From: Nanopusillaceae archaeon
Lineage (GTDB): Archaea > Nanobdellota > Nanobdellia > Nanobdellales > Nanobdellaceae
Direction: 5' to 3'
Assembly: GCA_049973735.1 (NCBI GenBank)
Contig: JBMFJL010000001.1
Location: forward strand, 1-32,000
DNA length: 32,000 nt
The notes beneath the pieces were generated by a model, which did not search any database, had not been told where the DNA came from, and worked only from the letters and a program-made list of their open reading frames with translations. Position numbers and translations under genes: made by a program. Each line of letters opens with the position of its first letter. Position 1 is the first letter of the stretch. Shown here one piece after another: positions 1,820 to 25,753 of this stretch.

Positions 1820-2218
1820 ATGGGTGAATACACCTTGTTATTAATGCTGAACATAATTAATTCACTCATGCTGATATATGCAGTATATTTACTATCAGAC
1901 AGGAATATAATTATTTTGTTAATATTGATATTTTTAGTTTTATTATTGTTATTCCCATTTTTATTTTATTTTACAACATTTTTAGCAAATACAGTTCAAC
2001 TATTGTTTATAATTGGAATATTTATATTGTTATTAACAATTTTAGGATACTTATCTAATTCTATATCATTTGGTGCGGCACTATTTCTTATCATATTTGC
2101 AATAATATTGCTAATATTACTATATATATACTTTTTGCTCTTTGGATTTAACTTAGGCAATTTATTCATTCAATCTGTAGCTAATCCATCGCTCATAGTA
2201 GTTTCACCATTGTATTAA
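1820..2218 (+). CDS. Small polytopic membrane protein (132 aa), possible accessory subunit of the downstream GT2 synthase
   Basis: About four hydrophobic helices. Its stop at 2218 is only 2 nt from the GT2 ATG at 2221, suggesting translational coupling. The accessory role is inferred from position only. Confidence 0.55.
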   Translation: MGEYTLLLMLNIINSLMLIYAVYLLSDRNIIILLILIFLVLLLLFPFLFYFTTFLANTVQLLFIIGIFILLLTILGYLSNSISFGAALFLIIFAIILLILLYIYFLLFGFNLGNLFIQSVANPSLIVVSPLY

Positions 2219-2220
2219 AA

Positions 2221-3822
2221 ATGGATCTATTATTTATTTCAGCATTAATTTTACTATATATTGTGACAATTCTGTCTATATTTGAATTAAGATATTTAGT
2301 AAATATTGATAGAGAAATTGAAGTACCGAAATATGAAGATTTGAAAAGGCCAGTAAGACTTTTTGTAATATATCCTGTAAAGAACGAATATGAAGATGTA
2401 ATAATAAAAAAGATAGAATATTTATATAAAATAAATAATCCATACAAAAATTTTGATTTGAGATTTGTATTTATAGATGATACAGATATAAATAAAGAAA
2501 AAGTTCTTGTCAATTATCTAGATAGCAAAAAGCTAGGAATATATACATATAAAAACTTTTTAATATATGATCTGGGTAAAATAATATACATTTTCAGATT
2601 TGGTGGAATAAAGAGAAAAGGTGCAGCTTTAGACGAATTAATAGATTTTCTAGTAGAAAAATTTGGAATAGAATATGTTTCTATATATGATTTAGAATGG
2701 ACAGTTACTGTTGACTATTTATATAAAGCAGTATGTATACTTGAATCTAATAAAGATCTCTCGTTTGTTTATTGGAATAGGAGAACAGTTCCTGTAGATT
2801 ATTATCATAAATTAGTGGGTATATATGTAGATACATTTTTTGAATTAACATTGCCAGCAAAAAATTTACTAGATGATATATCAATGGTCCATGGTTCTTG
2901 TGGGGTTCTAAGAGTTAGAGATTATAAAGTAGCTGGAGGATTTACCCCACATTTAACTGAAGACGCATCTTTAACTTTGAGATTGTATATGAACGGATAT
3001 AAAGGTATATACATAAGAAATTGGATAGAATACGGACAAAATCTCCCACCAAACTTTAATATGACTATGAAAACATTGAGAAGATGGCAAACCGGTACTT
3101 TTGATGTAATATATTCTAATTTGTTTAAATTATTGTTTAACGAAAATCTAAATTTAAAACAAAAGTTAAGTTTCATGCATATGTTTTCATCTATTTATAT
3201 ACCTCTTCTGTCGTTTGTATTAATTTCTATAAGTATTTATTCTATAATTTCAAATTATAGTAGTGGAACATATCAATATATATTTCCATTTTTTTATTTT
3301 GCTACACTTTATATTGTCCTTCTTATGCTATACCAATATTATAAAGTGGAGGAAAGGATTTATGGGGAAGGATCTTTAAAGGATGCATTTTTGGTATTGT
3401 TGATTGGTTGGGGCATATCATCACTTACCATAGTATATTACTTGAGAAGAATATTATTTGGAATGGACAATAAATGGATTGTGACTAAGAAAAAAGTAAT
3501 AAGATATAACTATGATTATTATTCTATTACTGTACTTTTAATATTTCTTATAATAAATTTGATATTCATAATTAGAGCTATGCCATGGTTAATATATTTA
3601 TATTATAATGATCATTTACTATTTTTATTAACAATAACCCTTGGAGAGTTATCAAGTTATATCTGGGTTTTATCTATATTATTTATCTTCTATTTAATGT
3701 ATAGAGGATATACAATGAAAGAAAAGGATGTTGGAGATTTGCTATATCTAGGAATCAGAAATTTAGAGATTAAAGATAGTCCAGTAAAGATAAAGAACGA
3801 ATATATTACCAGATCTTTATAA
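2221..3822 (+). CDS. Family 2 glycosyltransferase, membrane-integrated synthase type (cellulose/chitin/PNAG-synthase-like fold)
   Basis: N-terminal TM helix followed by a GT-A domain with FIDDTD, KRKGAALDEL, GSCGVLR and TED (LTEDASL, nt 2956-2964). An RRW variant of QxxRW (TLRRWQTG, nt 3079-3087) follows, then at least five hydrophobic helices to the C-terminus. Confidence 0.8.
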   Translation: MDLLFISALILLYIVTILSIFELRYLVNIDREIEVPKYEDLKRPVRLFVIYPVKNEYEDVIIKKIEYLYKINNPYKNFDLRFVFIDDTDINKEKVLVNYLDSKKLGIYTYKNFLIYDLGKIIYIFRFGGIKRKGAALDELIDFLVEKFGIEYVSIYDLEWTVTVDYLYKAVCILESNKDLSFVYWNRRTVPVDYYHKLVGIYVDTFFELTLPAKNLLDDISMVHGSCGVLRVRDYKVAGGFTPHLTEDASLTLRLYMNGYKGIYIRNWIEYGQNLPPNFNMTMKTLRRWQTGTFDVIYSNLFKLLFNENLNLKQKLSFMHMFSSIYIPLLSFVLISISIYSIISNYSSGTYQYIFPFFYFATLYIVLLMLYQYYKVEERIYGEGSLKDAFLVLLIGWGISSLTIVYYLRRILFGMDNKWIVTKKKVIRYNYDYYSITVLLIFLIINLIFIIRAMPWLIYLYYNDHLLFLLTITLGELSSYIWVLSILFIFYLMYRGYTMKEKDVGDLLYLGIRNLEIKDSPVKIKNEYITRSL

Positions 3823-4006
3823 ATTTTTAAACTAATATTAAAAAAGATCGAATATTAGGAATAATATAATTAAAATTAATTATGCTAAAATAGTTTATGG
3901 AATAATTATCTCTTTTGCAATACTTTATCATAATCTGTCTCTCAAATTATAGTCTTTACTATTTGGTAGTGGTAAACTTAAAAACTTTTCTACTAAATAA
4001 ATTAAG

Positions 4007-5158
4007 ATGGCGGAAAGATTTAGGAGAAACTTAGACAATACTCTTGGTAGAAGAGATCTTATTAAATTCTTAGCAGGATTAGTAATTGGAGGTGCAGTAA
4101 TATACATGTTAGATCACCAATCACCACAAGTTATAAAAGAAACTGTTACATATACTCCTACAAAGGGAGAAGGATCCGGTCAAGTTATTGTCAACATTTA
4201 CAATGAACCATCACAATCGAGACGAGATATTACTTCTACTATCTCACAATCTAGTACAACTACTTCAAATATAGAAACATCTATCACATCTACAACTAAA
4301 CCAAAACCCACAAGCACAACAGTCTCAGAAAATACAGAAACAACTACTTCAACTCCATCAAGCACTTCAACTACTTCTCAGATTATTCAAAAAGGTTTAG
4401 AGTTACCAGATAATAAGTATGCAGTATTAATATTGGATAAAGTAGAGGAAAAACCACCATACTTACTACTTACAGTAAGGAATCCATACTCAAGAAATAA
4501 AACAATGAATATATTAGTGGATCAGCGTCTGTTTACAGCGAGGTATTCTGTATTTGGTAAAACTGGTACAATAAGTCTACAAGAATTATATAAATTTACA
4601 AAAGAAAACGGTTTAAATAATTATTTAGTAGTTGAAAATCCAAAAGATTACATATTGCCATATGGATCTGATAAATATTCGTTGAGATCAAATTCTCCAG
4701 CAATAGTAATATCTACAGATAAAGGCTGGAAAAATTTAGATAGTTTATTAAACGGACAAAATCCAGTAGCAGTTATATTGACTTCAGAAATTTCTAATGA
4801 TTCACCTGGAATGATATATGGTGGTGCCTTTTCATATAAAGATTCGGTGGCAATATTCCTATTAGATTATGATATAAATGAGGTTACAAATATTGTACAA
4901 AAAGAATCAGCATTAATGTTAGGTAAGTTAGGACTAAAAGGACAGTTGTCAAATCCTACAGGAAACTTTGTAAATGGCGCAGTGGCTCCAGTAGCTCTAA
5001 CAGAAGGACCAGTATATAGGGTAAAAATTGGAGATGTAGAATATAAAGCAGTAAATCTAGCTAAAGATAAAACAATATTAGGATATTTATCTTACGGAGT
5101 TCTAGGACAAGGATATAGAGTAGCAACTGAACTTTCATCGCAAATAACCCAAGACTAA
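4007..5158 (+). CDS. Exported or membrane-anchored protein with twin-arginine N-terminus and mucin-like Ser/Thr-rich linker
   Basis: N-terminus is MAERFRRNLDNTLGRRDLIKFLAGLVIGGAVIYML (RR motif plus hydrophobic region). Residues about 75-125 are nearly pure S/T/P/N (TSTISQSSTTTSNIETSITSTTKPKPTSTT...TTSTPSSTSTTSQ). The C-terminal ~250 aa globular domain is unrecognised. Confidence 0.7.
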   Translation: MAERFRRNLDNTLGRRDLIKFLAGLVIGGAVIYMLDHQSPQVIKETVTYTPTKGEGSGQVIVNIYNEPSQSRRDITSTISQSSTTTSNIETSITSTTKPKPTSTTVSENTETTTSTPSSTSTTSQIIQKGLELPDNKYAVLILDKVEEKPPYLLLTVRNPYSRNKTMNILVDQRLFTARYSVFGKTGTISLQELYKFTKENGLNNYLVVENPKDYILPYGSDKYSLRSNSPAIVISTDKGWKNLDSLLNGQNPVAVILTSEISNDSPGMIYGGAFSYKDSVAIFLLDYDINEVTNIVQKESALMLGKLGLKGQLSNPTGNFVNGAVAPVALTEGPVYRVKIGDVEYKAVNLAKDKTILGYLSYGVLGQGYRVATELSSQITQD

Positions 5159-5189
5159 TAGAAAAATAAATTTTTATTAAAAATTTTTC

Positions 5190-6251
5190 ATGGTCCAAAT
5201 CAACAGAAGGAATTTTTTGAAATTAGGAATAATTGTAGGATTATCATTAACTCCTATTTATTTATTATACAATAATTTAAATAATTATAGTTATGGTCAA
5301 AATAGTCAGATTAGTGAAACTTTAATTACAGGAACAATAGAAACAAAATATTTATTTTGGGTTGTAACATGGGGAAAAGAAACCTCCTTAGATAAAATAA
5401 TTCAATTGTCAAAACAAAGCAATAATATTAAGATAGGTTTGGTTGATATTGCCGAAAGCAGTTATCATAATGAAAGATTTAAATCATTTTTAAGAAATTT
5501 ATGTAATAAAACTGATGGAGAAATGTTTATTAATGAATTTTTTTATACTCAAAGAAATGACAAAACCGATATAGATGAAAATACATTAAATAACTATATA
5601 GATACACTTAAATATATTTCAAATGTTTGTAAAAATAAGAGAAACGTAACAATATTTTTCAGTGAGATGGATTCAATGCCTTTAGATGCACTAGTAGATT
5701 TATACAAGATTACAAAAGAATATTTACCAAATGCAAAATTCGGTTATTATACAAATTTTAATCAGAATCCGGAATATATAATTGAATTATATAAAAAACT
5801 TGATAACTTAGGTATAAAACTTTCATACGTTGGATATGATATCTGGCCAGTGCCAGGATATGTTTACAAAAAAGAAAATGGAAAGATAGCTATACCAAAA
5901 CAATATGTAGATATGTATCTAAAGCCAATAATAAAGTTTGCAAAGGATAAAAATATTACCTTATTTATTGGTGAGATAGGATTTAGAAATGGAGATCCAG
6001 AGGGATATCTTTATCCTGCAGAAGTTTGCTTATCAAATAATAATTGTACTAAAACAAAGGATTATGAAAAAACAATTGGATATTTGATAGATGTTATTGA
6101 AGATTTAAAGAAAATTGTTATAGATAATAATTATTCTGGAGAATTTTATATAGGTATTTGGAATTTAAATGGTGCAAATGATGATACATTTGGAATAGGA
6201 GATAATCCTTATTTTGATAGATTAATAAATTATATGATAAAAGATCAGTAG
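5190..6251 (+). CDS. Exported protein with consensus Tat-like motif; putative TIM-barrel glycoside hydrolase (clan GH-A-like)
   Basis: N-terminus is MVQINRRNFLKLGIIVGLSL, matching the (S/T)RRxFLK pattern. LFIGEIGF resembles the clan GH-A nucleophile strand and IFFSEMD is a possible acid/base strand (SE instead of NE). Alternating beta/alpha-like pattern. The CDS is solid; the function is tentative. Confidence 0.6.
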   Translation: MVQINRRNFLKLGIIVGLSLTPIYLLYNNLNNYSYGQNSQISETLITGTIETKYLFWVVTWGKETSLDKIIQLSKQSNNIKIGLVDIAESSYHNERFKSFLRNLCNKTDGEMFINEFFYTQRNDKTDIDENTLNNYIDTLKYISNVCKNKRNVTIFFSEMDSMPLDALVDLYKITKEYLPNAKFGYYTNFNQNPEYIIELYKKLDNLGIKLSYVGYDIWPVPGYVYKKENGKIAIPKQYVDMYLKPIIKFAKDKNITLFIGEIGFRNGDPEGYLYPAEVCLSNNNCTKTKDYEKTIGYLIDVIEDLKKIVIDNNYSGEFYIGIWNLNGANDDTFGIGDNPYFDRLINYMIKDQ

Positions 6252-6327: not shown

Positions 6328-7695
6328 ATGCTAGACTGGGTAGATATAAAAAATCATTATATGAAAAAGGAGGTCATGAACGAAATAATAGAATATTCAA
6401 AGAATAGGTGGATTGCAATAGAAACTTCTAGATTAGATCAGAGAGTATTTATAAGATATGATAGAGATAAAAGACCATTAAAAATAGAGAATGAAGATGA
6501 ATATAAGTCTCTATTTGTAAAATTTTCTAATTTAAAATTTAGAACAATTTATGCAACTATAAATATTTATAATGAAATAAAGGAAGAAAAGTTGAAGGAT
6601 ATAAACAATATAAGATTGGTAACTCCAGTATTCGATATAGATGGTACTTTAGAGGATTTTGAAATAATAAAGAATGTTGCAGAAATAATAATATCATATT
6701 TGGAAAAATATAATATATATAAATCGGTGTATTTAAAGTGGAGTGGGAGAGGAATTCACATACATATAAATGAAAATGCTTTTTCTAAAAACATATTAAA
6801 TAAATATCATCCATTAGATATAGCATTTTCGGTAGTAGACTTTATAATAAAAAAGGCTAAAAATGATCTTGAAAAAGAAATATCGAAGGCAAAGGGAAAA
6901 TCAAGAGAATTTAAAGTAGAAAATAAAATTGATATACAAAGGGTATTTACTGTACCATTATCATTTCACAGATTTTTAGATTATGTTTGTGTAGTATTTA
7001 AACCTAATGATCTAAATAATTTTGATTTATCTTGGGCAGACTATAGAAATTATAAGCATGATAAAAGTTGGAGGGAATATGAAGAAGGGGAAGGAGATTA
7101 TCTAGCAGAATTGTCTATCAAAGAGTCTAAAGGATATATTAAAGATTATCTGACAAAATCTACAATTGATCAAACGAAAATATCAATAAATAAAAAAAAT
7201 TATGGAAATGTTGGAAGATTCCAGATCATGGCATTATTACAAGCAGCCAGATATTATTTATTATATGGTGATTTAAATAAAGCAAAAAGTTTTGGATTGA
7301 ATAGAGCAATATTTTATGCATGGGCAAAATACTACAGGCCTGTATACGGAAGAAGTAAAAGGAAAATATTCTTTGGAAAAGGTGAAAAAAATTATAGCAT
7401 AAGTAAAGATATAGAATTTATTAAAGTTGGGAATGAGGAGGTACCATACAATAAAATTACAGGATTTTTCCATATGGGCGATAAGGATCAGACTCCAGAA
7501 GATTATGATAAAGAAGTAAAAGATAAAATAGATGGTATTATAGATTATGAAAAAGCTTGGAATTTTGCATTAGAATATTTGAAAAAATTCCCAAAGAGTG
7601 TATTAGAAAACCAGCAAGAATTTTATAAAAGAGTTTATGAACCTATAAGGGATAGGTTTTTAGAAGAATTAATAAAAAGAGAGAGATCAAATTAG
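6328..7695 (+). CDS. priS: Archaeo-eukaryotic DNA primase, catalytic PriS-type domain with C-terminal helical extension
   Basis: AEP motifs in order: VFDIDGT (DxD), WSGRGIHIHI (sGxGxH), IDIQRVFTVPLSFH (D...R..P.S.H). A further ~200 aa helical C-terminal region (e.g. GRFQIMALLQAARYYLLYGDLNKAKSFGLNRAIFYAWAKYY) contains no cysteine cluster. Confidence 0.8.
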   Translation: MLDWVDIKNHYMKKEVMNEIIEYSKNRWIAIETSRLDQRVFIRYDRDKRPLKIENEDEYKSLFVKFSNLKFRTIYATINIYNEIKEEKLKDINNIRLVTPVFDIDGTLEDFEIIKNVAEIIISYLEKYNIYKSVYLKWSGRGIHIHINENAFSKNILNKYHPLDIAFSVVDFIIKKAKNDLEKEISKAKGKSREFKVENKIDIQRVFTVPLSFHRFLDYVCVVFKPNDLNNFDLSWADYRNYKHDKSWREYEEGEGDYLAELSIKESKGYIKDYLTKSTIDQTKISINKKNYGNVGRFQIMALLQAARYYLLYGDLNKAKSFGLNRAIFYAWAKYYRPVYGRSKRKIFFGKGEKNYSISKDIEFIKVGNEEVPYNKITGFFHMGDKDQTPEDYDKEVKDKIDGIIDYEKAWNFALEYLKKFPKSVLENQQEFYKRVYEPIRDRFLEELIKRERSN

Positions 7696-17730: not shown

Positions 17731-17806
17731 AATATTGTATGGATTAACAACAATGATTATAAATATTTAAACATTGCTTATATATATTGATGTACTCTAT
17801 TATTAT

Positions 17807-18553
17807 ATGGATATATTTTCCATTTTTAGGAGAAAAAAAGATCATGCTAATCAGGAATTAATCCCCGTACAAAATGTAAATCCAAACCCAACACCAATTC
17901 AGAATAATGAAATAACTAGCATAATAAATTCAATAGAGGGTTTGGCAAGATCTATAAGAGAAATGGAAAATAGAATTTCTGAATTATCGAATAAATTTGC
18001 TGAAATAAATACAAAAGTTGAATCAAATCAAAATGAAATAAATAACATTAAAAATAATTTGGAAAAAATGTTTTCTATATATGAATTATTGATGAGAAGT
18101 TATAATCCATTTGTAGAAACAGAAGAAAAAGTAGTTGAAGCTAAACAGGACATTCAAAATATTTCAATAACTAATAATGAAGAAAAGACACATATATTAC
18201 CATTAAAAGATTTGGATGATAATCCTGCAGTTGCATCCATAATAATAGGCTGGTTATCTTACTTAGTAAAAAAGTCAAATATGGAGGAAGTAGAAAAAGC
18301 ATTAGATTATTATGAAAATATAAAATGGATAACAGAAAAAGTAAAAATAAAATTAAAAGAATATCTAACAGGATTATCCGGATTAGAAACAGAAGATAAA
18401 AAATTAACACCCAAGGATCATTTAGTAAGTTTATATATAATAACAAAGCTATCTAATTTATCAAATGAGCGAAATTTAGAAAGAATGAAGGATTTGTATA
18501 AAGAATTGGTTGAAAAGGGATATATATCTCCGACGGAAAAAGAAAATGCTTAG
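17807..18553 (+). CDS. Archaellum accessory protein, ArlC/D/E (FlaD/E) family
   Basis: Coiled-coil N-half ending ...YELLMRSYNPF, then PLKDLDDNPAVASIIIGWLSYLVKKSNMEEVEKALDYYENIKWITEKVK, which matches the FlaD/E signature (W..fL...; L.YYe.i.WI). ATG 17807 is preferred over the TTG at 17774 because CTTATATATA lies 21-30 nt upstream. Confidence 0.7.
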   Translation: MDIFSIFRRKKDHANQELIPVQNVNPNPTPIQNNEITSIINSIEGLARSIREMENRISELSNKFAEINTKVESNQNEINNIKNNLEKMFSIYELLMRSYNPFVETEEKVVEAKQDIQNISITNNEEKTHILPLKDLDDNPAVASIIIGWLSYLVKKSNMEEVEKALDYYENIKWITEKVKIKLKEYLTGLSGLETEDKKLTPKDHLVSLYIITKLSNLSNERNLERMKDLYKELVEKGYISPTEKENA

Positions 18554-18935
18554 ACAACTGGTATATTTAGCAGTATTATTTATAGTAGGATATATATCCG
18601 TTTATATATTTTACAATTACTTTGAATCCACAGGTAATGTCTTAGCTAGAGAGGTTTCAAACTTTACAAATAGCGTCTATGTACAACCTTTTACATCTTA
18701 TATCATAAGTTCATATTCTTCTCCAGAGTATTCTATATTGTATTTGATAGGGAGCTCCCAGTTGAGTAATTGCATAAAAAACATATTGGTAGAAGATTTA
18801 CCAGTTAATTATACGGTAAAATTCTTGAATAATTATACAGCAGAGATAAAAGTATATGGTAGAGAAGTAGATAAAGGGGCAAATTTAACTATACAATATT
18901 GTGATGGCCAAAAGGTATTTTATATAATATCATAA
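18546..18935 (+). CDS. ArlF/ArlG-like archaellum protein (N-terminal TM anchor plus beta-rich domain)
   Basis: MLRQLVYLAVLFIVGYISVYIFYNYF is followed by ~100 aa of beta-type sequence. Its position between ArlD/E-like and ArlH, with an 8-nt overlap on the upstream gene, fits this role. There is no diagnostic motif, so the call rests on context. Confidence 0.45.
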   Translation: MLRQLVYLAVLFIVGYISVYIFYNYFESTGNVLAREVSNFTNSVYVQPFTSYIISSYSSPEYSILYLIGSSQLSNCIKNILVEDLPVNYTVKFLNNYTAEIKVYGREVDKGANLTIQYCDGQKVFYIIS

Positions 18936-18938
18936 AAA

Positions 18939-19643
18939 GTGGTAGAGTATATAGATATTTATTTGGATAGAGATGAATTTGCCGACAGGTTGGGAGGAGC
19001 AATACCAAAGGGTAGTATATTTATAATTGAAGGAGATCATGGATCTGGAAAAAGTATAATAGCTCAAAGAATTGTATATGGAGCTCTATACAATAATTTT
19101 AAAGTTACTTATATATCTACAGAGTTGTCGGTTGTAGATTTTGTAAAACAAATGAACTCTCTAGGATATTCAATAGAAGATTATCTACTTAAACAGAGTC
19201 TTCTCTATATATCTACTTTAAATTTATTTGGTAAGGTAAAGGAAAAAGAAAATTTAATATTTGAATTGACTAAAGAAAAATCAAGGAAAATATTTGAATC
19301 AGATTTAATAGTACTAGATTCTTTGTCTTATCCATTAATTAATGGTTTGAGTAATATGGATTCTGTTAAATTGATAGAATTTTTTGGAAAAATTAAGGAT
19401 TGGGGAAAAACAATACTTTTAACCTATAACCCATCTGAAATCAATGAATTTTTTGTAAGAAATATTAGGAGGGTATCAGACATATACTTTAATATTAAAT
19501 TTAGCACAATTGGAGAAGGATCCTCATTAAGAATAATTGAAGTAAAAAGATTTAGATATCCAAGGGGAATATATAATAATGTAATACCATTTAGGGTAGA
19601 ACCAAATATAGGCTTAATTATCGAAATATCTTCATATGTATAA
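18939..19643 (+). CDS. arlH: Archaellum ATP-binding protein ArlH (FlaH), RecA/KaiC-like
   Basis: DEFADRLGGAIPKGSIFIIEGDHGSGKSIIAQ (Walker A), a hydrophobic strand ending in D (LIVLDSLS, Walker B-like) and ~230 aa length. GTG start at 18939, since no in-frame ATG is nearby. Confidence 0.85.
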   Translation: MVEYIDIYLDRDEFADRLGGAIPKGSIFIIEGDHGSGKSIIAQRIVYGALYNNFKVTYISTELSVVDFVKQMNSLGYSIEDYLLKQSLLYISTLNLFGKVKEKENLIFELTKEKSRKIFESDLIVLDSLSYPLINGLSNMDSVKLIEFFGKIKDWGKTILLTYNPSEINEFFVRNIRRVSDIYFNIKFSTIGEGSSLRIIEVKRFRYPRGIYNNVIPFRVEPNIGLIIEISSYV

Positions 19644-21322
19644 TGAATGAACAATTAATACAAAAAAGCCAACAAGAATATATAATAAAGAGAGAAAGGG
19701 CACATACAATATCTATAGAAATTACTAAAGATTTTAATCAAGCTTTAATTAGATATCCTCATTTGAAGTCATATATTGATGATATATCTAGAAAAATCGG
19801 ACTTCCAGAATGGAAAACAGAATTAACTTTTGATCTAAGAAAAAGGACAGAGTTCAATATTCTATATCCTGTTGGAGATCCTATATTTATTCATGTTTAC
19901 AAATTGCCAAGTGGCGAAGCTCATTATAATGTTATAGAACCACAAATTACAGAAGAAGAAAAGAAAAAATTAGAGAAAATTCAATCTAAAATCGTTAAAT
20001 ATTCTATAGAAAATATAAATACAGAAAATGTAGAAGAGGTAAAAAGATATATAGTGGATTTATTTAATAGGGTAATTGAAGTTGGTAAGAAATCTCTATT
20101 TTCTGACAAAGTTTTTGTAAAAGATAAGGAAGAATACGATAGATTATTATATTTCTTAATAAGAGAAAGATTTGGGTATTCCTTTTTAGAGCCATTTTTG
20201 AGAGATCCTTATCTGGAAGATGTCCATGTTTTAGGATTGGGAGATATTTATGTAGTACATAAAATATTTGGAATGTTAAAAACAAATAGGAAGTTCAAAG
20301 ACGAAGTAGAATTAAACAAATATATGATAAGATATTCTGAAATTGTTGATAGACCAGTATCAGAAAATAGGCCAATAGTAGATGCTATATTGCCAGATGG
20401 ATCTAGAGTTAATTTCATATATGGAAAAGATATTTCTTTACATGGATCATCATTTACAATAAGAAAGTTCTCAATGAAACCATTGAGCATAACTCAATTA
20501 ATATCTTTTGGAACTATTTCTCCAGAAGAGGCTGCATATTTATGGCTAGCCATAGAAAATGGAATGAATATAGTAATATCTGGAGAGACAGCATCTGGTA
20601 AAACTACATTATTAAATGCTCTAGCTACATTCATTAAACCAGATGCAAAGGTATATTCTGTAGAAGATACACCAGAATTAAATATTCCACATCCAATATG
20701 GCAAAGACTTGTAACAAGAGAAGTAGGAAAAAGATCAGACGTATCCATGTATGATTTATTGAGAGCAGCATTGAGATCAAGACCAAATTATATATTAATT
20801 GGTGAAATTAGAGGAAAAGAAGGTTATGTAGCATTTCAGGCAATGCAAACTGGTCATCCTGTCATGACAACGTTCCATTCAGGTAATATAACTCAACTGA
20901 TAGAAAGATTGACTGGAGAACCAATTAATATTCCAATTACATTTATAGATAACTTAAATATTGCTGTATTCACATCCTCAGTAAATATAAAAGGAAGAGC
21001 TGAAAGAAGAGTCACAAGTATATATGAAATTGAAAAATATGTAGCAGAAATAAAAAAGGTTGCTGTTAGAAGAGTATTTGCATGGGAAAGTGTAAGAGAT
21101 AAACATATATTTTCTGGAAAATATAATAGTTATATTCTGGAGAAAAAAGTTGCTCCATTGATGAAAATAGAAGATAAAAGAAAAATATATGAAATATTAG
21201 ATTATCGTGCCAGAATATTAAAAAGAATGGTAGAAGAAAAAATATTTGACTTTTACGAAGTTTGGGAAATATTAAAAGAATTTTATCTTAATGGACCATC
21301 AGCATTACCCTTCACTGTATAG
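19643..21322 (+). CDS. arlI: Archaellum motor ATPase ArlI (FlaI), type II/IV secretion ATPase family
   Basis: SGETASGKTTLLNAL (Walker A), ILIGEIRGKE (Walker B/Asp box), MQTGHPVMTTFHSG (His box). Overlaps arlH by 1 nt (TAATG). Confidence 0.92.
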   Translation: MNEQLIQKSQQEYIIKRERAHTISIEITKDFNQALIRYPHLKSYIDDISRKIGLPEWKTELTFDLRKRTEFNILYPVGDPIFIHVYKLPSGEAHYNVIEPQITEEEKKKLEKIQSKIVKYSIENINTENVEEVKRYIVDLFNRVIEVGKKSLFSDKVFVKDKEEYDRLLYFLIRERFGYSFLEPFLRDPYLEDVHVLGLGDIYVVHKIFGMLKTNRKFKDEVELNKYMIRYSEIVDRPVSENRPIVDAILPDGSRVNFIYGKDISLHGSSFTIRKFSMKPLSITQLISFGTISPEEAAYLWLAIENGMNIVISGETASGKTTLLNALATFIKPDAKVYSVEDTPELNIPHPIWQRLVTREVGKRSDVSMYDLLRAALRSRPNYILIGEIRGKEGYVAFQAMQTGHPVMTTFHSGNITQLIERLTGEPINIPITFIDNLNIAVFTSSVNIKGRAERRVTSIYEIEKYVAEIKKVAVRRVFAWESVRDKHIFSGKYNSYILEKKVAPLMKIEDKRKIYEILDYRARILKRMVEEKIFDFYEVWEILKEFYLNGPSALPFTV

Positions 21323-22739: not shown

Positions 22740-23072
22740 ATGAAGATAGACAATATGATTAACAACGCATTTTTATTACTAGATTTATATAGACTGCATT
22801 CTAAGAAATTGATGAAAAAAATAAAAAATGAGGAGATCAAAGCTTTGTTGTTAATATCTTATAAAGAAGATGATATATTGGAGATGATTGAAAATATTAT
22901 GTATGAAAAAGAGTTATTAAAAGATTATTTAGAAAAGAATGACCTAAATAACGCCTATAGAATATATAAAGACATAAAATATAAATATAAAATGATAGAA
23001 AAAATTTTAATTGATAGGATTGAAGATCTTATTAAAATAAGAGCTTTAGATATTATGAAATCAAATCATTAA
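22740..23072 (+). CDS. Hypothetical helical protein (110 aa)
   Basis: ORF with K/E/I-rich helical sequence. Overlaps the 3' end of the convergent PGM/PMM gene by 20 nt. No family recognised. Confidence 0.4.
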   Translation: MKIDNMINNAFLLLDLYRLHSKKLMKKIKNEEIKALLLISYKEDDILEMIENIMYEKELLKDYLEKNDLNNAYRIYKDIKYKYKMIEKILIDRIEDLIKIRALDIMKSNH

Positions 23073-24327
23073 ATATTCTTTCTAAATCTAAATCTTTTTT
23101 ATAACTTTCTATTATAATTCTATAAACTGGTTCTGTTTGCGATTCCCTAACTAATATCCTTACGTCATCTTTTGCTAATTCTACACCATCCAGTTCCCCA
23201 TCTAAATTATTTATATGATATCCATTATTTTTTCCATATTCTAGAGCTTTTCTTATCAAATCCTTTTCCTTTGGAATAACTTTTTTAATTATTTTGAAAT
23301 TTTCTATGTTTATATCGACAAAATTGTCTATCTCTTTTAAAAACATTAGACCTGCAAATAGAGCATCATCTATATAGCTATTTTCTGAAAAATATATATG
23401 TCCAGAGTATTCTATTCCCATGTAAGCATTATATTTTTTGCATTTTTCTTTTATAAATGTATGACCAGTTCTAGATAGGATATAATGGCCCTTTTTCTCT
23501 TCAATATATTTCCTTACATACATTGGTACAGATATCTCTATTATAAATCTCCTATTTTCTTTAACAAATGGTATTATGTATTTATCTGGTTTTATTATAT
23601 TTCCATTTTTATCTACAATACCTATTCTGTCTCCGTCGCCATCAAATGCAAAACCAATATCTAATTTTTTATTAATTACTAATTTTTTTAATTCACTTAG
23701 ATTTTCTTCATTTGAAGGATCTGGTGGATGTGATGGAAAATTACCGTCGAGTTTTTCGTTTATAGCATAAACTTCATTTCCCAGATCTAATAATATATCT
23801 TTCATTAAGGATAAAACAGAGTTTGCAGGATCATAGCCAATTTTGTATCCTTTTATTTTTTTGAATTTTTTTCTTATATACCATTTATAAAATTCTATTC
23901 CGTTTTCTTCCTCAATTATACCATTCTTTTGATTAGGTTTTTCTACTTTTTTAGTCAGTTCTTCAATTATCTTTATCTCTTCGGAATTTAGACTTTCCCC
24001 ATTATTTTTTATCGGTTTTATTCCATTATATTCCGGTGGATTGTGCGATGCAGTTATCATCAATACCGGTATAGAATAGACTTTTGCAAGGTAATGTGCC
24101 TCTGGTGTAGAACCAATTCCAAAGTCTATAACATTATGTGTATGAGTTAGAGAAGATAACAATATATTCTTAATCCTTTCCGAATGTATTCTAACATCTC
24201 TAACTATACCTATTGTTTCATTGTTTTCAAAAAATTTTCCAAATGCTAAACCTATCTTATATATTAATTCATCTGTAAGTTCTTTTCCATATATACCTCT
24301 AATATCATAAGCTCTAAATACGCTCAT
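23053..24327 (-). CDS. Phosphohexomutase (phosphoglucomutase / phosphomannomutase / GlmM family)
   Basis: ITASHNPPEYNGIK (active-site phosphoserine loop), FAFDGDGDRIGIVD (metal-binding loop), GIEYSGHIYF (sugar-binding) and RESQTEP (phosphate-binding loop). Confidence 0.9.
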   Translation of the reverse strand: MSVFRAYDIRGIYGKELTDELIYKIGLAFGKFFENNETIGIVRDVRIHSERIKNILLSSLTHTHNVIDFGIGSTPEAHYLAKVYSIPVLMITASHNPPEYNGIKPIKNNGESLNSEEIKIIEELTKKVEKPNQKNGIIEEENGIEFYKWYIRKKFKKIKGYKIGYDPANSVLSLMKDILLDLGNEVYAINEKLDGNFPSHPPDPSNEENLSELKKLVINKKLDIGFAFDGDGDRIGIVDKNGNIIKPDKYIIPFVKENRRFIIEISVPMYVRKYIEEKKGHYILSRTGHTFIKEKCKKYNAYMGIEYSGHIYFSENSYIDDALFAGLMFLKEIDNFVDINIENFKIIKKVIPKEKDLIRKALEYGKNNGYHINNLDGELDGVELAKDDVRILVRESQTEPVYRIIIESYKKDLDLERIFNDLIS

Positions 24328-24691: not shown

Positions 24692-25753
24692 TTATTTTCT
24701 TCTGCTATTAATTTTCCAGATTTCATACTCTAATTCATTGGACAATTCTATAATATCATTAACATCAGTAAAATTACCAGATAATATTTTGCTATATGTT
24801 TGATTTATAATATCTATAGATTTATTTACTTGTGCACAAATTAGCATTCCTCTACCTCTGGCGCAAAGATCCCTTATTCTTTCTAATACATCTTGTTCTA
24901 CTTCTAATAATCTAATTGCTTTACTTTCTATTACTTCTTCTATTTTGATTTCATTCTTTCTTTTTTCTTTGAATTCTACCTCGATTTCTGCTTTTATTTT
25001 TTGTTTTTCAAATGGTATAGCTACAGTTCCATTTTGTACTTGTGGTAATATACACTTCTCACCTATTTTTCCAACAAATACTTCTCTAATTTCAAACCAA
25101 TCTGTATCCTCACTTATATTTACATATATTACTTTGGGAAGATATTTGCACACCATATTCTCTATTTTATGTGTATCATTTAATGTATATACTGTGTAAT
25201 TTATTCCTAATGAACGCAATTCATCAGGTATTCTTCCTAAGCTACCTTCTTCTCCTGTGAATATGAAAACTTCCTTAACTTGCAAGGTAGTTAATGCTCT
25301 TATCGTAGAATTCCATAGAGAACCATCTGGTACAATTAATATTGGAGCGCTATAATTTTGTGCTAATTGTACAGCTTCTGTTACTAATTTTATCTTTTTG
25401 CCCTTTACATTTTCATTTACTAAATCCCTTGTAAGTATTACTGCATAATTTGAATTGTTCCAGAACAACATAGCTACGTATGCAGATGTATCATATCTTC
25501 TCACACCCCAAATCCACTTGTAACTTATATATGTCTTATTCAATTCATCAAATAGCAGTGTAGATATTACTGCTGGTCCACCAATTATTATAACATTTGT
25601 TACATTATTTTGCAGAAGATATGATACTGTTTGATTTATACTAATTGGATCTTGATGTACTGTATATACTGGTAATCCATATATACTACCTACGACATTT
25701 GCTACAATAAAATCTGCATAAGTTATATTGGTTGTTAAAATTGCAGTAACCAT
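24692..25753 (-). CDS. Hypothetical protein with cell-wall-binding-2 (CWB2)-like repeats and C-terminal coiled coil
   Basis: CWB2-like strings: ADFIVANVVGSIYGLPVYTV...VIIIGGPAVIS; WGVRRYDTSAYVAMLFW..NYAVILT; AVQLAQNYSAPILIVPDGSL...VFIFTGEEGSL. More than ten N-x-S/T sequons, a K/E-rich coiled coil in the last ~100 aa, and no N-terminal signal or TM segment. Confidence 0.55.
   Translation of the reverse strand: MVTAILTTNITYADFIVANVVGSIYGLPVYTVHQDPISINQTVSYLLQNNVTNVIIIGGPAVISTLLFDELNKTYISYKWIWGVRRYDTSAYVAMLFWNNSNYAVILTRDLVNENVKGKKIKLVTEAVQLAQNYSAPILIVPDGSLWNSTIRALTTLQVKEVFIFTGEEGSLGRIPDELRSLGINYTVYTLNDTHKIENMVCKYLPKVIYVNISEDTDWFEIREVFVGKIGEKCILPQVQNGTVAIPFEKQKIKAEIEVEFKEKRKNEIKIEEVIESKAIRLLEVEQDVLERIRDLCARGRGMLICAQVNKSIDIINQTYSKILSGNFTDVNDIIELSNELEYEIWKINSRRK

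Follow-up and report, generated by a model that had tools for sequence, protein, structure and literature searches.

Background

Bacterial cellulose synthase BcsA, represented in the Protein Data Bank (PDB) by R. sphaeroides entries 4HG6, 4P00 and 5EJ1 and E. coli entries 7LBY and 9B8V, is a glycosyltransferase of family 2 (GT2) with a GT-A domain set between transmembrane (TM) helices; the C-terminal part follows the order TM5, TM6, interface helix, gating loop, TM7 and TM8, and the FxVTxK motif of the gating loop binds the uridine diphosphate (UDP) moiety (PMC8892547). In the PgaC-PgaD and IcaA-IcaD systems, a short GT2 synthase needs a small membrane partner that is encoded beside it (PMC8892547), and in CcsA-CcsZ and BcsA-BcsZ the synthase gene is accompanied by a gene for an extracytoplasmic glycanase, CcsZ being a member of glycoside hydrolase (GH) family GH5 of clan GH-A (PMC7710045). 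Short archaeal GT2s with TM helices, resembling the cores of synthases of cellulose or poly-N-acetylglucosamine (PNAG), have also been described, including one from Woesearchaeota that was modelled in silico (Romling 2022, PMC10086821). Here these systems are compared with a locus near the start of a 32,000-nucleotide stretch of DNA (the window; contig JBMFJL010000001.1, positions 1 to 32,000) from a metagenome-assembled genome (MAG) of a Nanopusillaceae archaeon, a member of the DPANN archaea, with a GC content of about 25%. The locus consists of four genes in a row, for a 132-aa membrane protein (the partner), a 533-aa GT2, and two surface proteins of 383 aa and 353 aa, which an earlier note on this DNA had joined into a single module for a surface glycan. 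We consider it probable that the first two genes are a BcsA-like synthase and its partner, which make and export a surface glycan, and that the genes of the 383-aa and 353-aa proteins are a recent insertion.

All four open reading frames (ORFs) were found on the + strand, with every motif quoted in the earlier note at its place (Table 1). By our own arithmetic, a random codon at 25% GC is a stop with a probability of about 0.09, and a frame of 353 codons would stay open with a probability of about 1e-14; because a stop is met in about 9% of random codons in such AT-rich DNA, open frames of 350 to 530 codons are not due to chance, and on this sequence criterion the four ORFs are genuine genes. 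In comparison with the closest relative of the locus, a 1,956-bp contig (L008) of the Joint Genome Institute (JGI) from a near-identical organism, the C-terminus of the GT2 has a ratio of nonsynonymous to synonymous substitution rates (dN/dS) of 0.13.

A cellulose synthase-like glycosyltransferase

The GT2 is 100% identical to a protein that NCBI holds under the Nanopusillaceae name with the label family 2 glycosyltransferase. It matches the Pfam family Glyco_trans_2_3 (30.6 bits, cutoff 27), and among all PDB sequences it matches BcsA only: the R. sphaeroides protein with E values of 3e-8 (single sequence) and 1e-9 (family profile), and the E. coli protein with an E value of 1e-6 over positions 120-451 of the GT2 family profile. 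In NCBIfam its sole match is to CelA (TIGR03030); PgaC_IcaA (TIGR03937) was not matched at E<=1, nor was PRK11498. Together with the predicted fold, these matches place the GT2 in the superfamily of processive synthases (BcsA/CesA/HAS/CHS/PgaC type), closest to BcsA, the placement by sequence being one of NCBIfam and PDB profile scores. By its scores it is not a BcsA equivalog.

The window GT2 was aligned with six homologues of 47-65% identity (alignment A3), and the elements PVKNE, DDT, KRKGxAL, YDxEW, GSCG, TED, RRWQxG and WIVTxK were found to be invariant. A local profile alignment with P0077, a BcsA-BcsB-like protein from a search of representative sequences, paired each of these with a motif of that protein (Table 1), including KRKGxAL with AKAGNLN and GSCG with CGSA. 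The FIDDTD and KGAAL sequences of the earlier note lie at aa 84-89 and, within KRKGAAL, at aa 131-137. The GT2 thus has PxxNE, DD and KxG elements, an equivalent of DxD, TED and xxxRW as BcsA does, as well as the interface helix, the [FW]xVTxK loop and two final TM helices, and its catalytic and gating motifs are under purifying selection.

Table 1. Features of the synthase locus, with positions in the window
Feature	Position	Strand	Basis and remarks
Small membrane partner, 132 aa	1820..2218	+	ORF call; four hydrophobic helices; without Pfam family
Partner C-terminal tail, aa 113-132 (...P...SPLY-COOH)	2156..2215	+	Terminal Tyr invariant; Pro two residues before it near-invariant
BcsA-like membrane-embedded GT2 synthase (predicted), 533 aa	2221..3822	+	Pfam, PDB sequence matches, AlphaFold2 (AF2) model, Foldseek
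PVKNE, aa 52-56	2374..2388	+	Invariant; pairs with PSYNE of P0077; corresponds to the PxYNE start of the BcsA GT-A fold
DDT, aa 86-88, first UDP-binding Asp motif	2476..2484	+	Invariant; pairs with CDDGG of P0077
YDLEW, aa 156-160, DxE variant of the DxD metal/UDP motif	2686..2700	+	Y156, D157, E159 and W160 invariant; pairs with FDADH of P0077
TED, aa 246-248, catalytic base, start of finger helix	2956..2964	+	Invariant; aligns with TED of BcsA (4hg6, 4p00, 5ej1) and TEDA of P0077
RRW, aa 287-289 in KTLRRWQTG, interface helix, TxxRW variant of QxxRW	3079..3087	+	Invariant; aligns with QRGRWATG of BcsA
WIVTKK, aa 419-424, gating-loop motif [FW]xVTxK	3475..3492	+	W419, I420, V421, T422 and K424 invariant; pairs with SFKVTAK of P0077
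AT-rich spacer, 185 nt, between GT2 and 383-aa gene	3823..4006	.	Likely transcript boundary, inferred
Strain-specific surface protein, 383 aa	4007..5158	+	ORF call; orphan except for the L008 copy
Strain-specific surface protein, 353 aa (344 aa from TTG 5217)	5190..6251	+	Predicted (beta/alpha)8 barrel

One N-terminal and five C-terminal hydrophobic helices were recognised in the GT2. Its AF2 model (predicted local distance difference test score, pLDDT, 75.9; predicted template modelling score, pTM, 0.81) begins with one TM helix and the GT-A domain, and continues after the RRW helix with two long helices, a helix at aa 386-413, a loop of low pLDDT at aa 415-425 that holds WIVTKK, and two more helices, which is the order known from BcsA. 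Because it stands at the position of the BcsA interface helix, just before the gating loop, the helix at aa 386-413 is probably an interface helix and not transmembrane. In a Foldseek search of the PDB, ranks 1 to 8 were all BcsA, aligned over about 500-540 columns with TM-scores, normalised to the query, of 0.55-0.66. Hyaluronan synthases (HAS), plant cellulose synthases (CesA) and chitin synthases came next, and a GT2 of the non-processive kind, archaeal PcManGT, first appeared at rank 41 and was matched in the glycosyltransferase domain alone. The earlier view that the GT2 has the layout of a channel-type synthase thus agrees with the PDB sequence matches and with the fold comparison, which speak against a soluble or dolichol-phosphate GT2, and the helix order and the full-length fold match (TM-score 0.62-0.66) would fit a putative glycan pore above the active site. 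The single N-terminal helix aligns with the last N-terminal helix of P0077. BcsA differs in having four N-terminal TM helices and PilZ-dependent control by cyclic diguanylate, whereas no Pfam match to PilZ was found in the GT2, of which the chain ends about 35 residues past the last TM helix.

A profile search of 1.84 billion representative sequences returned 768 relatives at E<1e-3, with 8 at E<1e-30. Many of the distant relatives have [FW]xxTPK where the gating-loop motif sits. Two of the relatives, P0075 (1047 aa) and P0026 (1174 aa), are giant fusions with a synthase core above the Pfam threshold for Cellulose_synt, several added N-terminal TM helices and large C-terminal extracytoplasmic or membrane domains; the C-terminal region of P0026 has a weak match to PMT_2.

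A conserved partner upstream of the synthase

Loci of the GT2 were collected from species-representative genomes (11 loci, of which 10 belong to Nanopusillaceae, namely Nanopusillus spp., Nanobsidianus stetteri, Nanobdella and strain YN1, and one to a MAG labelled Woesearchaeota) and from metagenomes (25 further loci). Where this could be tested, 16 of 17 and 21 of 22 loci (37/39 altogether) have a gene for a small hydrophobic protein directly upstream of the GT2, at a distance of -1 to +9 nt. In the window, 2 nt separate the partner stop codon from the ATG of the GT2; in Nanobdella aerobiophila, strain YN1 and three metagenome lineages, a hydrophobic ORF of 120-127 aa ends a few nucleotides from the GT2 start. 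Such an ORF is also found before the more distant synthases P0011 (E 1e-133) and P0014 (E 3e-43), and is missing upstream of two other distant archaeal relatives. On this gene arrangement the partner is conserved and translationally coupled to the GT2; the earlier note had drawn the parallel with PgaD and IcaD, which holds in logic.

The partner sequences are only about 20-30% identical overall, and no significant Pfam match was found in 14 of them (two unrelated families were returned, at E 0.015 and 0.47); the family appears to be undescribed. The window protein has four hydrophobic segments. In an alignment of the partners (A5), Y132 is invariant, and P113 and P130 are kept in at least 90% of the members. 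The codons of the tail vary synonymously (CCA or CCT for Pro; ATA, ATT, ATC, TTG, TTA or CTA, six codons in all, for Ile/Leu; TAT or TAC for Tyr), and the constraint is therefore at the protein level. For the same reason, the idea that the PxY ending is kept for a coupling signal in the nucleotide sequence was rejected. Because the basic residues lie in the first loop (and also in the third loop in the L010 lineage), the positive-inside rule suggests a topology with both termini outside, which would put the tail at the outer face, where the N-terminus of the synthase would also lie.

Some loci depart from the common arrangement. In the lineage of L021 and L043, the GT2 is followed by a hydrophobic ORF of 87 aa that lacks the PxY ending, and upstream of the GT2 L021 has genes for an MscS-like channel and for a protein (4222-4938) that we take to be cis-prenyltransferase-like from its DGNRRYA motif. 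A 158-aa ORF (L049, 2521-2997) that ends in Tyr (...GVVVGVY) lies 3 nt upstream of the distant synthase P0017; its product has two TM helices, an acidic coiled-coil-like region and a short hydrophobic end. Strain YN1 has a second synthase-type GT2 of 466 aa (L003, 5151-6551) with QQTRW and YIVTPK immediately upstream of the partner. In L011 a second GT2 (208-1895) was called as ORFs of 483 and 91 aa, the gating-loop motif (QWIVTKRK) being in the smaller one; this is probably a frameshifted or split gene. In Nanopusillus isolate RSNS12 (L018, 6001-7479), the GT2 matches fall into three pieces, and because these are in different frames they represent a pseudogene or an assembly error.

Polymer synthase or glycolipid enzyme

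Several observations weigh against a BcsA-like polymer synthase. The CelA match of the window GT2 reaches only 32.8 bits, against a cutoff of 699.1, a low similarity to BcsA; QxxRW has Thr in place of Gln, and DxD is changed to DxE; a minimal synthase core has been proposed to have two N-terminal TM helices (PMC8892547), and the window GT2 has one. The L021/L043 lineage has no partner upstream. Several of the distant relatives score about equally against CelA and PgaC_IcaA, always far below the cutoffs (66-111 bits for PgaC_IcaA, cutoff 422), and because they fit the one as well as the other, the sugar is not assignable from them. Some relatives also match HpnI, a lipid glycosyltransferase, weakly, and QxxRW followed by TM helices is found in such enzymes too.

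These points bear on an alternative in which the GT2 would add a few sugars to a host-derived lipid, or make NodC-like oligomers, and the partner would merely stabilise it. Dependence of Nanoarchaeota on host lipids, and the lipid glycosylation proposed for Nanopusillus acidilobi (PMC4935971), are in keeping with such an enzyme, as are the Thr of TxxRW, the occurrence of (Q/R)xxRW with TM helices in lipid enzymes of families GT2 and GT21, and weak matches of relatives to HpnI and NodC. However, the full-length fold, membrane region included, is matched best by BcsA; the [FW]xVTxK gating loop is conserved within the order of two TM helices, interface helix, loop and two TM helices; and matches to CelA and PgaC among the relatives are stronger than those to HpnI and NodC, CelA being the only one of these that the window GT2 itself matches in NCBIfam. 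A glycolipid or oligosaccharide synthase is accordingly regarded as quite improbable, and a synthase of polymer is preferred.

Proposed mode of action

In a model built on the gene structure, conservation, predicted fold and motifs, the processivity, pore, partner contact, topology and product of the two-protein synthase would be as follows. The GT2 would be a minimal enzyme of the cellulose synthase kind, with a cytoplasmic GT-A domain supplied with a nucleotide sugar; the acceptor end would be held and moved forward by the finger helix with TED and the interface helix with RRW, the gating loop with WIVTxK would close over the nucleotide, and the growing beta-linked glycan would be pushed through a pore formed by the TM helices of the GT2 itself. 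Produced through translational coupling, the partner would be an obligate subunit in the membrane, with three or four helices that would most likely pack against the single N-terminal helix of the synthase. This is the region that holds three further helices in BcsA and in which PgaC and IcaA rely on PgaD and IcaD, so that the partner would supply in trans the helices that BcsA carries in cis; its Pro-rich, Tyr-ended tail would stand outside, close to the exit of the pore. The glycan may contribute to the symbiont surface, and would be made by the Nanopusillaceae ectosymbionts and a few other DPANN lineages.

Glucose and N-acetylglucosamine (GlcNAc) are the candidate sugars. Cells of N. acidilobi bind wheat germ agglutinin (WGA), and glycosyltransferases are expressed in its proteome (PMC4935971). 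A product that contains GlcNAc is possible because of the WGA binding, a staining that N-glycans explain equally well. A gene for a phosphoglucomutase/phosphomannomutase (PGM/PMM) at 23053-24327 (- strand) of the window fits a local supply of sugar-1-phosphate precursors.

The terminal Tyr of the partner could conceivably act as a covalent primer or anchor for the glycan, of the glycogenin-like or O-Tyr type, an idea that we consider very improbable. If it were true, the polymer would be tethered to the symbiont membrane through a proteolipid of 100-130 aa, a new mode of anchoring, and would be a candidate for the structure that physically ties Nanopusillaceae cells to their hosts.

The two-protein synthase bears on how DPANN ectosymbionts build their surface and hold their hosts. 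It is a concrete candidate for production of a secreted or surface polymer in organisms with about 0.6-0.8 Mb; some of them, such as Nanobdella aerobiophila and N. acidilobi, are in culture. Much of the N. acidilobi proteome is given to carbohydrate metabolism, which has no energetic role there (PMC4935971). If the model is correct, the pair would be among the smallest BcsA-type machines, without PilZ or BcsB and with some of the membrane domain carried by a second protein, and would help to show which parts a synthase cannot do without.

Genomic context of the synthase pair

The genes of the 383-aa and 353-aa proteins were sought by tblastn in all retrieved loci; matches were found in L008 only, and they are absent from the 36 other loci, which include those of all other species. 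Contig L008 has the same four-gene order as the window as far as it reaches; the GT2 C-terminus is 96% identical between the two, the 383-aa protein 88%, and the 353-aa protein 95% over its first 43 residues. The gene after the GT2 in other Nanopusillaceae is ThyA-like, about 470-480 aa long, with Thymidylat_synt and PterinBD-DUF4346 domains (L012, 4835-6253; L001, 8619-10031; and equivalents) or, in YN1, a homologue, 77% identical, of the gene at 6328-7695 of the window. The usual place of the ThyA-like gene is taken in the window by the two surface-protein genes and this primase-like gene, and synteny with the window resumes further downstream with a 79-aa gene, a rhomboid gene and an M1 peptidase gene. 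From their absence elsewhere and from the resumed downstream synteny it follows that the genes of the 383-aa and 353-aa proteins are, by gene order, an insertion specific to the strain lineage of the window.

The conserved unit, as judged from these loci, is two genes, the partner and the GT2, and not four. Of the module that the earlier note proposed, the synthase and its partner therefore stand as a conserved pair, while the two genes after them are missing in the loci of other species, and conservation of the four-gene order was seen only in the near-identical contig. The genes for the stalk-bearing and hydrolase-like proteins, being strain-specific, should not be passed on in descriptions as members of a conserved operon. 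Two further genes that were thought to be possible members, at 491-1192 (233 aa) and 1214-1720 (168 aa), gave no tblastn match in any related locus and are not conserved neighbours. A correspondence between the 233-aa membrane protein and a 255-aa protein at the same position in Nanobdella was considered and rejected (E 10).

The block was also described as tight, which holds for the partner and the GT2 with their 2-nt gap but not for the GT2 and the 383-aa gene, between which there are 185 nt of AT-rich spacer. A run of five T directly follows the GT2 stop, a TTAAAAA element lies about 25 nt before the ATG of the 383-aa gene, and the spacer is kept in L008 except for one 21-nt indel; the gap of 31 nt before the 353-aa gene is likewise AT-rich. 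No RNA genes were found in the spacers or elsewhere in the region of the four genes. These promoter and terminator remarks come from a reading of the spacers by eye, which carries little weight in a genome of 25% GC, and on them the 185-nt spacer may be a transcript boundary.

A single synthase-dependent module of all four genes, in which a 353-aa hydrolase of clan GH-A would trim the polymer as BcsZ or CcsZ does and the stalk protein would bind or anchor it, was weighed against this context. The genes are adjacent on one strand, in an order shared with L008; synthase systems commonly include a hydrolase and a co-polymerase (PMC8892547), the GH5 enzyme CcsZ accompanies a clostridial cellulose synthase (PMC7710045), and the 353-aa protein is modelled as a GH-A-like barrel in which one Glu follows beta4 and another lies in beta7. 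Moreover, Thr-rich or Pro/Thr-rich proteins with a twin-arginine (RR) signal are encoded upstream of the partner in L010, L019 and L011, but they are not homologous to the 383-aa protein. The last two genes are missing beside the pair in other species and have no homologues outside L008 among 5.8 billion proteins or the metagenome contigs; between them and the GT2 lies a spacer that has terminator-like and promoter-like elements; the evolution of the 383-aa gene is almost neutral, as has been reported for hypothetical external proteins of Nanoarchaeota (PMC6142677); and the 353-aa protein has Ser-Glu, not Asn-Glu, in a model of low confidence. A four-gene module is on balance unlikely, and the two-gene synthase with a recent insertion behind it is retained.

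The primase-like gene (6328-7695, + strand; 455 aa) has no Pfam match and is 76-78% identical across Nanopusillaceae; its homologue lies upstream of the partner-GT2 pair in most species and downstream in the window and YN1. Its FDIDG and SGRGIHIH motifs are what we take to be typical of archaeo-eukaryotic primases (AEP).

The two surface proteins

The 383-aa protein consists of a signal or anchor (GRRDLIKFLAG) with the one N-terminal hydrophobic segment, a Ser/Thr-rich stalk at aa 65-124, and a globular C-terminal domain. In this stalk, which the earlier note called mucin-like, the 50 residues of aa 75-124 are 68% Ser and Thr. Apart from the L008 copy, no homologues were found in protein databases, metagenome contigs or related loci, nor was there a Pfam or PDB match. 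Hypothetical external proteins of Nanoarchaeota with a single TM helix are known to diversify rapidly (PMC6142677), and the dN/dS of 0.84 for the 383-aa gene against L008, compared with 0.13 for the GT2, fits this pattern.

Tat (twin-arginine translocation) signals have the motif S/T-R-R-x-F-L-K followed by a hydrophobic region. The earlier note had assigned such signals to both surface proteins. In the 383-aa protein the RR motif (GRRDxIKFLAG) is kept in L008. That of the 353-aa protein (NRRNFLKLG) is doubtful, as it is present only if translation starts at ATG 5190, and in L008 (1827-1956, aligned with window 5190-5318) codon 7, the AGG of the second Arg, is an in-frame TGA. The two sequences differ at 5 positions in these first 129 nt, 3 of them in codons 5-7, and the NCBI product has 344 aa, with its start at codon 10 (TTG, window 5217). 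Either the TTG at 5217 is the true start or the L008 copy is a pseudogene; the N-terminus may be Met-Lys followed by a hydrophobic stretch, a plain signal anchor. The Pfam TAT_signal family scores 12.4 bits against a cutoff of 22.7, and no Pfam match to Tat components was found among the 29 ORFs (essentially of at least 90 aa) scanned in the 32-kb window. Tat is absent in Nanoarchaeum equitans (PMC2614490).

Exported proteins with similar signals are encoded beside the pair in a few other loci. In L010 and L019 the gene lies directly upstream of the partner (in L019 with a 13-nt overlap), and its product has a TRREFL-type or SRRAFL-type signal and a Thr-rich stalk; in L011 the upstream gene encodes a protein with the signal TRRDFMK, a segment rich in Pro and Thr, and an anchor at the C-terminus. 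When 183 ORFs from related loci were screened for motifs, only the two window proteins and that of L010 were flagged, those of L019 and L011 being recognised by eye. Homology of the 383-aa protein to those of L010 and L011 was rejected (BLASTP E 0.03, short segments). Most Nanopusillaceae loci have no such protein beside the pair; the few cases hint that surface proteins tend to sit there, and they are not evidence of a conserved module.

The 353-aa protein was the only member of its family among 5.8 billion proteins, with no homologue in PDB, Pfam, NCBIfam or metagenome contigs; homology to the C-terminal extra domain of P0075 was examined and rejected, as no similarity was found. The single-sequence AF2 model (pLDDT 63, pTM 0.72) has eight beta/alpha units. 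The best Foldseek matches are GH10, GH53, GH39 and GH5 enzymes (E from 2e-6, TM-score 0.38-0.47, 8-12% identity), and the 35 best are almost all hydrolases of clan GH-A, one being a computationally designed enzyme. The TIM barrel with two catalytic Glu that was predicted from IFFSEMD (aa 155-161) and LFIGEIGF (aa 258-265) is thus recovered weakly: in this low-confidence model E159 (nt 5664-5666) is right after strand 4 (aa 153-158) and E262 (nt 5973-5975) is within strand 7 (aa 257-265), as in clan GH-A, but the candidate acid/base Glu is preceded by Ser (S158-E159-M160) in place of the canonical Asn, the NEP motif is absent, and neither Pfam nor NCBIfam gave a GH family match. The IGEIGF sequence resembles the nucleophile strand of GH5.

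The protein may be a GH-A-type glycanase that would trim the glycan of the synthase or a glycan of the host, its link to the synthase being conjectural; action on the synthase polymer is considered doubtful. A tentative but distinct possibility is that both surface proteins serve in host interaction or are associated with the surface layer (S-layer), unconnected with glycan metabolism, the barrel being that of a binding protein or a pseudoenzyme, or an artefact. Both are orphans by sequence, the 383-aa gene is of the rapidly diversifying kind reported for external proteins with a single TM helix (PMC6142677), and the low pLDDT and TM-scores and the missing NEP motif of the barrel point the same way, whereas the predominance of GH-A hydrolases over other classes of TIM barrel among the best matches, the two Glu at catalytic positions, and the resemblance of IGEIGF to the nucleophile strand point to an enzyme. 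In the preferred reading, that of a two-gene synthase followed by an insertion, the two genes would be a recent, fast-evolving insertion for membrane-anchored surface proteins whichever of these functions they have.

Comparison with known systems

No genes for BcsB, BcsC or BcsZ were found near the pair, the only Pfam family among the neighbours being rhomboid, and no deacetylase gene (PgaB/IcaB) was found nearby. The resemblance of the pair to PgaC-PgaD and IcaA-IcaD is one of functional analogy only: a GlcNAc polymer would fit the WGA staining of N. acidilobi, but PgaD and IcaD are encoded downstream and have 2 TM helices, whereas the window partner is encoded upstream, has 3-4 TM helices and a conserved PxY tail, and has no homology to them by Pfam. 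The putative glycanase of the window differs from CcsZ and BcsZ in being an orphan of one strain lineage, with no GH family match and no NEP motif; it differs from GH10 xylanases, GH53 galactanases, GH5 and GH39 enzymes in having Ser-Glu in place of Asn-Glu, in addition to the low TM-scores of its single-sequence model.

The kind of enzyme is known and has already been noted in DPANN archaea. The statement of the earlier note that no equivalent has been described in reduced archaea of this type was too strong in view of the Woesearchaeota GT2 (PMC10086821). Compared by description only, the available portion of that account differs in describing neither a conserved partner gene nor a Nanopusillaceae family, and our literature search found no paper that links Nanopusillus to cellulose synthase. 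What appears to be new is that a Nanopusillaceae GT2 keeps the gating loop and the membrane layout of BcsA, that its partners form a family with an invariant C-terminal Tyr, and that the unit is of two genes, not four.

Other surface-related genes of the window

Beside the PGM/PMM gene lies a gene (24692-25753, - strand) for another protein of 353 aa, with a weak match to CWB2 (cell wall binding 2), which is possibly associated with the surface layer. The window also contains an archaellum gene set (17774-21322, + strand), with a FlaC/D/E-like gene (17774-18553), a gene for KaiC-like FlaH (18939-19643) and one for the FlaI ATPase (19643-21322), which fits the expression of archaellum proteins reported in N. 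acidilobi.

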